Source of the DNA: Lama guanicoe
Taxonomy: Eukaryota
Assembly: GCA_013239625.1 (NCBI GenBank)
Contig: MU056063.1
Coordinates: 523,360-587,359 of the forward strand
Length of the DNA: 64,000 nucleotides
Reading direction: 5' to 3'
Both the position numbers and the translations under genes were made by a program. A model generated the notes under the pieces. That model was not told the DNA's origin, made no database searches, and saw only the letters and a list, made by a program, of their open reading frames with translations. Of the stretch, positions 8,781 to 59,428 are shown piece after piece (within the stretch, counting starts at the first letter, position 1; each line of letters opens with the position of its first letter).

Positions 8781-11419
8781 CGCAGGTCACAGCCGGGCGT
8801 GCAGAATGCTCTACCGAGTGGACAGACAGTAACTGGGAGCAAGACGGTAACGGGACAGACAATAACAGCGCTGAGCTCTCCAAAACAACGGCTGGTGTCT
8901 GTTGTCACATCCTGGGACTGAACCTGACATCAGCAACGTTTGGCAACCAGAATCCCCCTCACGGTGGAAACCCCCATGACCCCAAATGCTTCCCCCGTGA
9001 TGAAGGGGGTCGCGTAGGCTTGCCTTTCGTGCAAATACAAGCGAACACGTATATGTTTCTGTGTGTGTGTGTTTATGTACATAAATGTATTGAAATAGTA
9101 AAGATGTATTGTTAAATTCTAAAAAATTAAAAGGAAAGCCTTATGTGCAGGCTACTATTTCTTTTACAAAGAGGGAGACTACAGACACTTAATACATACA
9201 ATGCACGCTTATACACGCCTAAAACAGTTCCCAAAAGTCAGTAAGAAGCTGGTAACAGTGGTTATTTAAGGAAAGTGAACTCCAAGGGACTGAGGGTGAG
9301 AGGGAGGCTTTTCACTCTGTACCCTTTTTCACAGTTAGAATTTTTTCTCCTGTGTTTGTATTACCTCCCTCCTCCAATTCTTTTTAATTAAAAAAATGTT
9401 AGCTGTCCTCTCTCACTCTGCTCTCACTCACATCACACAGTCTCTCCGTCTATGCTTCCTTCGCAGTTCCCACGCTGGGATGCGCCCTGATTCCCAGGCC
9501 TCGTGCCTTAGAAAGCAGGGTTTCCAGAAAGCCCTGGAAAACCCAGGGCTGCTAGGTAAGCCCCGTCGAGAAAGGTGAGCTCAAACCTTCGGGCTCCTTC
9601 TCTTGCATGGGTCAGGAGTCTTGCTCCTGCGAGGGAGGTGGGGAGGCGGAGGGAAGGCAGTAACGTGTGAGAAGGAAGCTCGTGGTGCCCCCAGGACAGG
9701 GCTCTCTAAAGACAGGGCTGCCTCCTGTGCCACCAGCTGCCAAGACCCCTGCTCTGTCTTCCTCACATCCCCACATCTGCTTCTAATCTTCAGAAGAGCC
9801 TCCTGTACCCCACATGCATGGAACAGGCCAGCACCCCTGGGAACAGGAGCTGGAGGCAGAGAAAAGGTGAGAACATAAAATCCCCAGGGAAACAGCGGGG
9901 ATCCTGGGGAGTACTTCAAATTTCTAGAAGGCATGGAATTTAGAGTCCAAATCAAGCCTGTGTCTAGCGAAGCCTGGAGCCCACAATGATGACTGGGTTA
10001 CAGATGCCAAGGTGCTGAATGTCAAATGTCCCTGCATGGATGGCAATGGTGAGGGCGGGCTGTGCCATTGGGAACAGGCTGCTGACACTGTCAGGGAAGC
10101 GGGAGAAGCTGGGCAGGTAGAGGCCCTGGGGAGTTGGGGAAGGGGGTTTCTGTGGTCACTGTTGCTGCCTCCCTGCAGAAGCCAGAGGTCAAGTTCAGGC
10201 TTGCTGTTCTTTAGCAACAGAGCCAAGATGGGCAAACTCAGCAAAACAAAAAGCAACAAAAAAGGCATTGATGAGAAGGTGGGATCACAGAAGGAAGCAG
10301 CAGAAACTAAAGTCAGACAAGCAGGAGTAAGGGTAGCTGTCGGAACCCAGGGAGCAAGAACTGAGCCGACACCCATCAGAATGCCTCAGGCATGGGTCAG
10401 CACCAGCCACATTTCTCTGGTTCTAGCCTAACACACAGGAGTCAAAGTGCAGGAGAGACGGTCTCATTGGCCCTGATGGAGTCCCATGGCCTCATACCCT
10501 GGCTAGCAGGGGTTGCTTTCCTAGAAGCCACCTGACCTTGGACACACATATCCCCAGAAGGAAATAGGGCTGTTGCATCCAGAAGGAAAACTGAGCACTC
10601 AGAGGCCAGGCAACCAAAAATCTTCATCCCAGTCTGAGAGTGGAAGGGCCAACCTCTGAATCTATCCCTCAGATTAAGACTTTGAATTGCTCAGTGTCTA
10701 TACGAATGTCCAAACAGTATTGTGCCGAATTGCCAAACAAGTCCCAAGCACCTCCTCTGATTTAGCCTTTCCATCGATTCTTACAGCTCCGGGTAATGGC
10801 AGCCACTCACAGTGGAACATGAAACGTAAAGCTCCGTGCACATCGTTACTGTCTGGGTTATGACATTTCTCCCTCGATTTCCTGCCAAGCCTCGCCCAGG
10901 TTTCTACATCCACCCACAAGGCGTATGCAGCCCTCGCTGGAAGCAGCCCCTGGGAGGCCCACCCTACCCACTGTAACTTCACACCCCGGGCTGCGAAGGG
11001 CTAGAATTTGTCCCCAACTAGACTTAGCCGTGTCCATCCTTACACAGGGGAGTGATACACCACCCGAAGACACAGCCAAGTTTGAATTCCCAAAGGCTGA
11101 CGACAACTCAGTCTCCATCAGGAGATGACATGAAATTAACCAGGGTTCATTCACCATTCAGCCACCAGAAAGCCTCAGGGGGTCCTCTGTCTGTACGGAA
11201 ATGGAATGATCTCAAGCTATGCTCTTAGAAGCAAGGGGCCCAACATCGTGCAGAGGACGGCATCGCTTTGTAGAAAAAGCGCAGGAACAAAATTATAGAA
11301 GTATAAGCATTCGGCGTTTCCCCGGCACCCCCTATGGAAGCAGGGAGCCCCGCAAGGCAGTAGAAGAGGGAGGAGCCAGACGGCGAGTCAAGGAGACAGT
11401 CTGAATTACCTGCAATACT

Positions 11420-15090: not shown

Positions 15091-15524
15091 GGTGAGAAGT
15101 TAGAAGTTTTCAACAGAGAAAACAAAAAGAAGAACCAAACAGAAATGAAGAATATAGCAACTGAAATGAAAAGTACCCTAGAAGGAACCAACAGTAGTTT
15201 AATGCTATAGAGGAACAGATCAGTGAGCTAGAAGACAGAGCAGCAGACAGTGATAGTGAACTGAAAAATGAAAAGAAATGAGAACAGTTTAAGAGACCTC
15301 TGGGCCAGCATCAAGCATACTAACATTTGCATCATAGGGGTCCCAGAAGGAGAAAAGAGAAAAGGGCAGAGAACACATTTGAAGATGTAATAGCTGAAAA
15401 CTTCCCTAACCTGAAAGAGGAAACGGACATCCAGGTCTAGGAAGCACAGAGAATCCCAAATAGGATCAACCCAAAGAAGACCACACCAAGACACACTGTG
15501 ATTAAAATGGAAAAATTTAAGATA

Positions 15525-15650
15525 GTGGGGAGTGTATAACTCAAATGGTAGAGCGCATGCTTAATGTACACAAGGTCCTGGGTTCAATCCCCAGTACCTC
15601 CTCTAAAAATAAAAAAGTAAACCTAATTACCACCCCCTCAAATTTTTTTT
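15525..15650 (+). mobile_element. Vic-1-like SINE nested in L1 ORF1
   Basis: 13-bp TSD AAAATTTAAGATA (15512-15524 and 15651-15663). Confidence 0.9.
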
Positions 15651-16569
15651 AAAATTTAAGATAAAGAGAGTCATAAAAGCAAAAGGGAAAAGCAACTAGT
15701 TACATATAAGAGAATTCCCATAAGGCTGTCAGCTGACTTTTGAGTAGAAACTCTGCAGGCCAGAAGGGAGTGGCCAGCTTGTTGGATACACACTGTTCCC
15801 CATATTGGAGGCCTTCCCCTAATGTTCCCGGGCCCCGTGCTGACCTCCAGGGAGCTGTCCCCATGCCAGGGTCCTGCTGTCCAGCTGGGGTCTCAGGCTG
15901 TCTTCCCCTGAGTGTGGCCAACCGAGAGACTACTCCATGTGACCCAGCCAGGGATGCTGGGGACACACTGCCCTGCAGGGGCAGAACCACGCCACCCTGG
16001 GCAGATGCACACTTTATCACTACAGTATTCATATGATCATTGCTGTCTTTATGGGTGCCTTCTCTTCTTTCTACTGGGCATTTTAAACCTCCCTGGAGGG
16101 ACCAAGCCTCATCAAAATTTGAAATGCCATGCACAGATGAACACCGCAGATCATGGGAGACTGGCCCATGGGTCCTCGAAATGGTCTCCGGGAATCTGTT
16201 GTCTGGGCAGCTTATCTGGGAGACCTACCCGGCCAAGACCCACAGCCCAGGCCGTTCTGTCGCTGAGAGATAACTTGGCGTGTCTCCCCCAGCCCTCACA
16301 GCCTGCTCCCGGCTCTGAACCCCACTGCACTATCTGGTGTGTCACCACGCTAGCCCTGAGTTGGTTCTGTCTCCCCACTTGTCTTTGAGCTCCAACAAGG
16401 CCAGGCTGTGTCTCGGGCCGTGGAGGAGGGTGGGGTGTAAAGGGAGGATCACTGAGGGGGACAGGGAAGGCTTGGGACCCTGTCCCTGCTCTGCGAGGTA
16501 CGCTGTAGACCCTCCAAGCCTTTCTTTTAAAAACCTGGATAAGGGGAGGAATAGTACCTGCCTACTTTG

Positions 16570-45579: not shown

Positions 45580-45665
45580 CTTGCGGAGGATGAATGCACG
45601 AACAAGGAAGAATAAAATTCCAGACATAATACCAGAAAGCAGCGGAGAGATGAACCAGGACATCA
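45580..45665 (-). CDS. SLC20A1: SLC20A1 exon 4 ([29 protein letters not shown])
   Basis: ttccag|TGATG acceptor, AAG|GTAATC donor, 86 nt. Confidence 0.96.
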
Positions 45666-45834
45666 CTGGAATAGAACACAGGAAGGAAAAAGGTCAGCTC
45701 GTGAAAGTCAGGAATCAAAACACATTTTAAATTTTAGCTCTCCCTTTTCAAACCTTTAGTCCGTCCCTCCAACCTTACACCATATACTCCCACACACAAC
45801 ACAATGGTAACACAAGAAAGATAAAAAACCATTT

Positions 45835-45884
45835 AGAATTAAACATACCGGTTAGGGCAAAAAAAATAAAGAATTAAACATACC
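45835..45884 (+). repeat. 15-bp direct repeat AGAATTAAACATACC flanking a 20-bp A-tailed insert at the exon 3 donor
   Basis: Identical copies at 45835-45849 and 45870-45884. Confidence 0.9.
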
Positions 45885-46024
45885 AATTTTGATCAGTTCA
45901 GACCACTTGACACCCTCCTGCCCCTTTGCCACCAGGGAGAAGCCAATGGTTGCACCAACAATACAATGGGTTCCAGAAATGGGCAGCTTCAAAAACGAAG
46001 CCACCAGTTGCCACACAGCAGAAC
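45884..46024 (-). CDS. SLC20A1: SLC20A1 exon 3 ([47 protein letters not shown])
   Basis: tttcag|GTTCT acceptor, ATTG|GTATGT donor, 141 nt, contains LPISGTH motif. Confidence 0.97.
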
Positions 46025-46181
46025 CTGAAAGACGTCAAGTTTCATTAAGCAAACGGCAAGATTCCATTATGTACGCAGTGCATCCTGAAGGAAATAACCT
46101 GAAAGGCGGTGCACAAGAATGAACTACCCACGAGAGGGATTTGCTCACCCACCGTTATGGGGCCAATACATAAGAACTCAC

Positions 46182-46509
46182 CAAACATCGCACTGACGGA
46201 GCCGGCCATCAGCCGGTCCTGGGTCGTGTTGTACATCTCCACGTCAATTAAGCCCTTCCGGATCGTCTCGCTCACTTTGGCCCCCAGGAGGACCGAGCCC
46301 ACTGTCTCAAAGATACTAGCTAGAATGCAGGCTTGCTTCAGGGTCACTACACCTGACCCCACGGCTGTACCAAACGAATTTGCTACATCATTGGCTCCCA
46401 CGGAGAATGCCAAGACAAATGCAATAATGAAGCCCAGGATAAGCATCCATAGGTAGTCTACCAATGGACCAGAAGTACTGGTAATCAGCGTTGCCACGGT
46501 AGATGCCAT
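46182..46509 (-). CDS. SLC20A1: SLC20A1 exon 2 coding part ([23 protein letters not shown]...[11 protein letters not shown]...AMFG)
   Basis: ATG at 46509 in AGAATGG context; PHO4-family N-terminal motif; donor G|GTGAGT; 328 nt, phase 1. Confidence 0.97.
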
Positions 46510-46777
46510 TCTCTAGAGTAGTGGTTTTTTCAATTAATAGAATTACTGAGCGGTTTTCGAGATGTGTAANNNNNNNNNNNNNNNNNNNNNNNNNNNNNNN
46601 NNNNNNNNNNNNNNNNNNNNNNNNNNNNNNNNNNNNNNNNNNNNNNNNNNNNNNNNNNNNNNNNNNNNNNNNNNNNNNNNNNNNNNNNNNNNNNNNNNNN
46701 NGGTGTCTTTGGCTCTGGAGGGCTAAAAGCACGGAGCAGAATTCCATGGCGGAGAAGAGAAAGGACGCAAGTTCATC
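46510..46777 (-). other. SLC20A1: SLC20A1 exon 2, 5' UTR portion (contains gap 46570-46701 and uORFs)
   Basis: Acceptor ttctccccccttcctag|GATGAAC with AG at 46779-46778. Confidence 0.8.
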
Positions 46778-46799
46778 CTAGGAAGGGGGGAGAAAATGA

Positions 46800-48100
46800 C
46801 AATAGCGGTGCGCCCTTGGGGAGGGGGGCCCGTCCGGCACCCCGCGGGGCAACCCCCGGACTGGGGGCCCCCGGCCCTGCCCTCCACCCGCGATCCGCTA
46901 TCTCCCGCCCCGCGCAGGACGCGCCGGGAGGTGGGCACGTGGCGCCGGGGACCTCCTGGGCCCGCGCGCGCCCAGTCCGGCCCCCGCCCCGCCGCGCGCG
47001 CCCTCCCCGCGAAAACCGGAAAAGGGCCGTTCACACGCGCGCCGCCCGGGGACCGCCAAAAAGGCCCGCGGGCGGGAGACCGGGCGGGAGGGCGGGGTGG
47101 AATGGGGTAGGGGGCGGGGGCGGGGAGAGAGACGGGCGGCGACGAAAGCAGAATCCCGCGGCTACCGGCACACCCGGCCACCCCCCGCGCCGCTGCGTCC
47201 GCGCCGGGCCCCGGGGAAAAGAAAGAGCCTGTCCAAGGTGGCGCCGCCACTCACCAGAGGAAACGAGGGGCCGAGCGGGAGACGGGCAGTCCGGACTGCG
47301 GCGGCGCACTGGGTCCACGGACGCACGCACCTGCGGTCGGCGAGCACACGGCCCGGGGCGGAGGCTCTGGGGATGGCTCGGCGAGGCTGAAGACCCACCC
47401 GGGAGAAGCCGCGGGCGCCTCAGCAGCCGAGAAGGGCGAGCACGCAGCGCGCGCCGGCAGCCATCACTCTAGCGGCGCACGCCGCCAGCCGCTACTTATA
47501 GCCGGCGCCGCGCCCCGCGTGACCCGCCGCGCCTCGCGCCGGCCCGGGAGCCCCGCCCCCGGGTGACGCAGCCCCCGGCAGCCGGGCGCGCCCGGCCGGA
47601 CGAGCCCGACCGCAGCTCTCATTGGCCCGACCCGCGCCGGCGGCCACGCTCCCAGGGGAGAGCTGGTCCACGTTAGGAGGGCCAGCCGCGTCCCTGCGGC
47701 CATGCCCTGACGTCTCGGCTAGTCTGGGGCGCGGGGGACCGAAACCCTGCCGCCAGAGGTCGTCAGGCCCGGTTACAGAAACCACGACCATGGTCATAGT
47801 TCCTCGCGAGCCCCGTTTTACAGAACTGGCCAGGCTTCTAGCCGCACTTTCAGCGCACTTGTGACCTGCAGCATCCGAAGCCACACCTGGCCAAGTTCCC
47901 CTCCTCCCGTCCTCCTGGTGACGCTGCGGGGGAGCTCGCGCCCTGGGGCTCGGATCCAGTCCTGGCACGTTGCTGCACCTGTGACTTGCCCTTGGCCAGA
48001 CAGTCACTGTCCCTCGCGGGGAGGAGGAGGGAGGGAGAGGGCTCACGTGGTCACTTTGCTCCCGCAGTCATGCAGTTCGGTGAAAACTGTAAGACCGAGG
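46800..48100. promoter_or_regulatory. CpG island and SLC20A1 promoter: TATAAG (47495-47500, -), GC box (47551-47560), CRE half-site TGACG (47564-47568), CCAAT (47621-47625, -), E-box CACGTG (48044-48049)
   Basis: Very high GC and CpG density, with motifs in the canonical order upstream of exon 1. Confidence 0.88.
47255..47470 (-). other. SLC20A1: SLC20A1 non-coding exon 1 (5' end approximate)
   Basis: Starts about 25-30 nt downstream of the TATAAG box (47495-47500) and ends at donor CTG|GTGAGT (GT at 47254-47253). Confidence 0.7.
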
Positions 48101-59217: not shown

Positions 59218-59428
59218 CTTAACTTAATTACCTCCATCCCCCCAGCAAAATCAAACAAACAAACAAAGAAAAAGAAGGGGGAGAGTAAAGCTGAAGTGTA
59301 GAGCTCATGCTTAGCATGTAGGAGGACCTGGGTTCAATCCCCAGTCGTTCCATTAAAAACAAACAAACAAACAACCAACCTAATCCCCTACCCCCTGCCA
59401 AAACCCACAAACTTTAAAAAAAAAAAAA
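59218..59428 (+). mobile_element. Vic-1-like SINE (59277-59428) preceded by an orphan SINE tail (59218-59276)
   Basis: CTTAATTACCTCC...CAAACAAAC tail followed by a second, diverged head and tail. Confidence 0.8.

Follow-up and report, generated by a model that had tools for sequence, protein, structure and literature searches.

In this study, we describe in the SLC20A1 (PiT-1) gene of Lama guanicoe, within a stretch of 64,000 nucleotides analysed as a whole (the window), an apparent 35-base insertion at the start of intron 3 whose target-site duplication copies the splice donor of exon 3. The reading that we favour, and consider probable, is that the insertion arose by LINE-1 (L1) target-primed reverse transcription (TPRT), that the donor at the original position is dominant, and that the second donor, 35 nt further into the intron (+35), contributes at most a small leak of NMD-bound transcripts. 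The type of insertion is commonplace and its location is what is unusual; any regulatory role is that of a candidate.

The duplication and its place in SLC20A1

The 15-base word AGAATTAAACATACC occurs twice around a 20-base spacer, GGTTAGGGC-AAAAAAAATAA, which is composed of the 9-base body GGTTAGGGC and a tail of the form A8-T-A2 (Table 1). Re-reading of the letters and a repeat scan confirmed both copies and the spacer where the preliminary description had placed them. The pair is the window's only non-simple repeat of at least 15 bases with a spacer below 60 bases, and in a shuffle scan of 261 kb (repeats of at least 12 bases, spacers of 8–60) repeats of at least 15 bases appeared in one of eight block shuffles and A-tailed repeats in none of the eight. 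By genome search the insertion locus is single-copy. An assembly artefact was rejected as an explanation, since the RNA contig of a diverged relative has both copies, with no gaps.

SLC20A1 lies on the minus strand, where exons 2–4 join into an open frame via the proximal donor, and in the encoded PiT-1 protein 283–285 of 299 residues are identical to those of the nearest proteins compared (horse, seals, whales). A CpG island marks the promoter (window 46001–48000; GC 0.615, 185 CpG in 2 kb). The two donors had been described as identical, which holds from position -1 to +14; at -3/-2 they differ, TTG in the proximal and CCG in the distal one. Translation bore out the in-frame stop that follows use of the distal donor: in the window the +35 form stops at codon 167, in the relative the corresponding triplet is TCA instead of TAA, and the stop comes two codons on at TGA, the first codon of exon 4. 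NMD acts on premature stops that precede a later junction by more than about 50 nt, and in the window 89 nt separate the stop of the +35 form from the exon 4/5 junction, which exceeds that distance.

Table 1. Features of the insertion and of the surrounding part of SLC20A1 (window positions)
Feature	Position	Strand	Remark
L1-endonuclease-type site TT/AGAA	45833..45838	+	bottom strand 5'-TTCT/AA-3'
Target-site duplication, distal (+35) donor copy	45835..45849	+	original intron-side context retained; frame as in other mammals' single-copy site
9-base body	45850..45858	+	fourth base G in relative; no match to a repeat-family end, local template or telomerase RNA
Eroded A tail, A8-T-A2	45859..45869	+	on gene strand, U tract at +15 to +25 of proximal donor
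Target-site duplication, proximal (canonical-position) donor copy	45870..45884	+	exon-side context retained
Exon 2, coding part	46182..46509	-	328 nt
Exon 3	45884..46024	-	141 nt
Intron 3	45666..45883	-	218 nt; 183 without the insertion
Exon 4	45580..45665	-	86 nt
Proximal donor TTG/GTATGT	45878..45886	-	yields open PiT-1 frame; ends of relative's contig match its use
Distal donor CCG/GTATGT	45843..45851	-	35 nt downstream of proximal; use not seen in relative's RNA contig
In-frame TAA of +35 form	45852..45854	-	TCA in relative

Ancestral state, age and origin of the insertion

The empty site was sought at the peptide level, among gene-caller predictions that continue past the end of exon 3 into the intron. 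A screen of 203 listed proteins (83 from one listing and 120 of 609 from another) gave 19 that read through a mammal-type exon 3 donor; of these, 18 score nearer to the window's distal-copy frame than to that of the insert, and the remaining one, P0086, agrees with neither. P0001, GMFNSKRLFILLVVLPWRCVW, tracks the distal frame of the window, GMFNSKWFFIFLVLPLCCVW, for about 25 residues, and P0085, a Rhinopithecus bieti model and the sole named taxon among the peptides, reads GMFNSKWLL, that is, the single-copy site. The insert-frame reading, LFFLP or NSLFF, is absent from all 203 proteins among the matches listed. Several clusters of peptides are near-copies of one another, with independent taxa therefore fewer than 18. 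Since 18 of the 19 fit the single-copy frame, comparison of these translated readings indicates that the single-copy site is ancestral and the 35-base stretch a derived insertion, and the one-copy empty site of other mammals thus upholds, at the peptide level, the earlier claim of an insertion with a target-site duplication. The primate gene model P0085 passes the exon 3 donor and goes without exon 4, which is likely a model error.

The features at the insertion edges point to the L1 machinery. The cleavage site of L1 endonuclease is given as YYYY/RR, and TTCT/AA is listed for a FAS Alu and two poly(A) insertions (PMC4859970, Table 1); the bottom strand at the edge of the duplication reads TTCT/AA and fits 5'-YYYY/RR-3', so that the L1-like site earlier noticed at the start of the left copy stands. 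Target-site duplications are described as typically 7–20 bp long (PMC3219598), a range that includes the exact 15 bp found here, and the tail, short at 11 bases, adjoins the nick-side copy, which is the side that priming requires. Of five marks of an L1-mediated truncated insertion, four are present: empty site, duplication length, nick site and tail; the fifth, a body that matches the 3' end of a known retroelement or RNA, is taken up below. Together, the YYYY/RR nick, the 15-base duplication and an A tail on the side expected make LINE-1 TPRT the likely source of the insertion. A pure poly(T) insert has been classed in the literature as an Alu, L1 or pseudogene copy with severe truncation (PMC3219598). 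The SINE duplications of the same DNA make a weak control, with candidates of 8–13 bases in 6 of 13 scored copies, some likely due to chance. Two tRNA-type SINE copies in the window (15512–15663 and 59252–59374) lie between 13- and 15-base repeats.

The body is harder to place. Followed by A7, it occurs three times in the 2.05 Gb genome with its own letter and twice with that of the relative, against one and one for controls, 9 bases being too few to place. An abundant repeat-family 3' end was rejected as its source by these genome counts, the four other matches lying in unrelated flanks; a local template was likewise rejected, the longest local match of 4–7 bases being within the random range. 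A body of 9 bases whose source was not traced, next to a tail of 11 bases, would also suit an origin outside retrotransposition, in which a staggered break is repaired by end-joining, its overhang duplicated and the gap filled in without a template or from a local one. We regard this course as decidedly unlikely, because the nick site, the length of the duplication and the side of the tail jointly fit TPRT, and the random-range local match also speaks against it.

The preliminary description had proposed a heavily 5'-truncated TPRT insertion with a telomere-like TTAGGG unit in its body. The nick site, the duplication and the side of the tail sustain the first part; the second had to be given up. 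It would call for a telomerase that, in repairing a break or running beyond its template, left such a unit behind, in keeping with the presence of GGTTAGGG in the window and with the T run that precedes the template in the genome's own telomerase RNA (gene at L005, G000:C6476:3156598-3157024; 333 bits to RF00024). However, there is one unit only, with no tandem TTAGGG, the relative reads TGAGGG, and the alignment of the telomerase RNA to the spacer is matched in quality by 65% of 1,912 random 450-mers from the genome. As TTAGGG is not kept in the relative and the match to telomerase RNA is no better than chance, the telomere idea fails, and telomerase origin was rejected as exceedingly improbable.

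The course of a TPRT event at this site can be proposed as follows. A first nick by L1 endonuclease, placed at TTCT/AA of the gene strand 14 nt into the intron, would have begun the process; the T-rich end thus exposed may have primed on a poly(A) RNA, with synthesis halting 9 bases past the tail; and a second nick, presumably at the last exon base, would then have led on repair to the duplication of positions -1 to +14, which is itself observed. At the level of the peptides above, other mammals kept the single copy.

The event appears to be old. Four runs were compared over 45646–45884, and the locus was recovered from one of them, the RNA run X15, whose record 1 comes from a relative about 4% diverged and spans the whole locus with 9 substitutions in 239 bases and no gap. 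Both 15-base copies are unchanged in this contig; position 45853 is G, which turns TTAGGG into TGAGGG and the gene-strand TAA into TCA. The other runs were set aside as uninformative on presence: X22 and X24 gave only a 38-base match with 7 mismatches from another locus, with the same loose ends as X15 record 2, and X13 gave no contig. The insertion is therefore common to the species of the window and a relative about 4% diverged, and it predates this intronic divergence, having been tolerated since; the suggestion that it might belong to this lineage only does not hold in the narrow sense. Across six organism labels, 14 DNA runs showed a word share of 0.98, a figure that is no proof of the insert by itself, since only about 5 of 95 words are expected to be insert-specific and each of the runs may be the source. 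At the local rate, the chance of finding no change in the 30 duplicated bases is 0.23–0.28, so that the unchanged copies are no sign of constraint.

Small insertions of this kind seem to be frequent. In 797.5 kb of hand-picked blocks from the same genome, we found four short A-rich-ended inserts between exact repeats, three of them with duplications of 16–18 bases, and shuffles of those blocks gave 0–2 such inserts in each of six. Taking the three, the rate is 3.8 per Mb (95% range 0.8–11), or some thousands per genome, for candidates defined by repeat and tail alone. At L019:3241-3303 (G000:C4216), an 18-base exact repeat surrounds 27 bases that end in an A run and follow a T-rich flank; two further A-rich inserts occur near position 9465 of L030 (16 bases, between exact repeats of 16) and near 7342 of L057 (14 bases, almost pure tail, between exact repeats of 17). 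A short GC-rich minisatellite with units of 7–8 bases was also seen in L014, near 9264–9430.

Choice between the two donors

The geometry of the X15 contig bears on which donor is used. The contig is 277 nt long and runs 9 and 29 letters beyond the interval 45646–45884. With 31-letter words, an unspliced path branching from a canonically spliced path is predicted to cover 45637–45913, 277 nt, and the observed contig agrees with this prediction at both ends; a +35 branch would have shortened it to 242 nt. No +35 junction was found in the contig graph of this one RNA run, where assembly into contigs loses rare forms and NMD would thin out the product. Since its ends match the canonical prediction, RNA spliced at the proximal donor appears to be present in the X15 run, and we infer from the contig geometry of this one run that the proximal donor is used in the spliced RNA of the relative. 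It is likely that the donor at the original position carries most of the splicing and that the +35 donor is a tolerated minor leak, whose product is predicted to be frameshifted, to stop at codon 167–169 and to be sent to NMD.

Agreement with the U1 complement extends to 8 of 11 positions in the distal donor and 7 of 11 in the proximal one, and folding revealed no RNA structure masking the distal donor (z = 0.58). TIA binding 10–28 nt downstream of a donor is reported to promote the upstream of two alternative donors (PMC2964331). The antisense tail places a run of 8 U in the 10–28 nt window behind the proximal donor, and this run, together with two U1 sites close enough to interfere, may favour the proximal site. 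In the downstream 19-nt tract, U makes up 13 of 19 positions for the proximal and 11 of 19 for the distal donor; the distal site being U-rich as well, the TIA1 argument discriminates weakly. The spacing of 35 nt sits inside the transition zone of 30–45 nt for duplicated donors (data of Cunningham 1991 as cited in PMC3413131).

That spacing, the better U1 match of the distal donor and the original intron-side context that it retains would all suit a stronger effect of the same insertion, in line with the alternative 5' splice site routing PiT-1 mRNA to NMD that the preliminary description had proposed: 10–50% of splicing would go through the +35 donor, NMD would conceal the product, and the donor would serve as a brake on PiT-1 dose. 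A stop follows the +35 splice in both lineages, both copies are unchanged in the relative, and in human, blocking NMD raises the level of minor donors that disrupt the frame (PMC8055015). On the other side, the RNA contig contains no +35 branch, the reading of the insert is in none of the 203 proteins among the matches listed, and the absence of change in the copies is, as calculated above, compatible with chance; human tandem minor donors are moreover described as mostly noise (PMC8055015). The requirements of the gene also bear on the question. Mice lacking PiT1 die at E12.5, and those with 15% expression show anaemia and growth delay (PMC2818845); with loss lethal and such a reduction harmful, fixation is hardly to be expected of an allele that forfeits most of its transcripts, but could have occurred with a modest leak. 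All in all, we hold a brake of this size to be unlikely, though it deserves consideration.

A different effect would be that the second U1 site chiefly slows the removal of intron 3, through U1–U1 interference, with more retention and no shift between donors. Intron 3 is indeed present as an unspliced contig in the RNA run, with a mean word depth of 51.3, and steric interference between close sites has been proposed in the literature. Yet this contig could be a retained intron, pre-mRNA or DNA, its depth cannot be ranked against that of the exons, and the word share of the run, 0.57, suggests that intron 2 is also unspliced there. We thus think a predominant effect on retention quite improbable, and a dominant proximal donor with a minor +35 leak remains our preferred account.

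Known systems and significance

The closest relatives of this insertion in the literature are the L1-dependent poly(A)/poly(T), severely 5'-truncated insertions of human disease genes (the NF1 exon 25 poly(T) and the 'pA' rows COL4A6, AGA, BRCA2 and NF1 in Table 1 of PMC4859970), which share the YYYY/RR site, AGA and BRCA2 having the same TTCT/AA as SLC20A1. Like the SLC20A1 insert, those entries include an antisense tail, a position beside a splice site and a source that is untraceable. They are, however, new disease alleles with tails of 35–120 bases and broken splicing (PMC4859970), whereas the insertion described here is old and common to two species, its tail measures 11 bases, and the gene remains intact. 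The copying of a donor by a target-site duplication has a precedent in the BTK Alu/SVA site (PMC4859970, Table 1, row 4), if we interpret the listed letters correctly: the duplication there ends in GAGTAAGT, which is readable as a splice donor. The two BTK copies are separated by a 281-base Alu and the allele causes disease, in contrast with the 35 nt between the SLC20A1 copies. Our literature search found no paper on the SLC20A1 insertion locus; a mention in a supplement, a database or a subscription journal is possible.

As regards splicing, the pair resembles tandem minor donors, in which two donors lie close together and one shifts the frame and is NMD-bound. Tandem minor donors typically arise by a 4-nt shift from the consensus, whereas here the second donor is an exact copy 35 nt away, of retro-origin, with its use as a minor site predicted. 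It also resembles engineered duplicated donors, which are near-identical and have a spacing in the 30–45 nt transition (Cunningham 1991, in PMC3413131); unlike these, the SLC20A1 pair is natural and fixed in an essential gene, and the upstream site appears to win.

For now, the insertion ranks as a curiosity: tiny TPRT scars number in the thousands, and this one has by chance copied a donor. Its value lies in being a natural test of donor competition, with near-identical donors 35 nt apart of which the downstream one is a slightly better match to U1: the spacing data in the literature predict real competition, yet the essential gene stayed intact. A far-reaching version, which we consider very improbable, would make the second site a poison donor across the family, where regulated splicing at +35 would consign a considerable fraction of PiT-1 transcripts to NMD, with the antisense tail as a TIA1-type switch between the two copies; if true, a single retrotransposition event would have given rise to an entire unproductive-splicing module. 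Should use of the +35 donor turn out to be both large and regulated, this locus would indicate that a target-site duplication alone can create NMD-coupled dose control, and it would represent a family-specific control of phosphate uptake.
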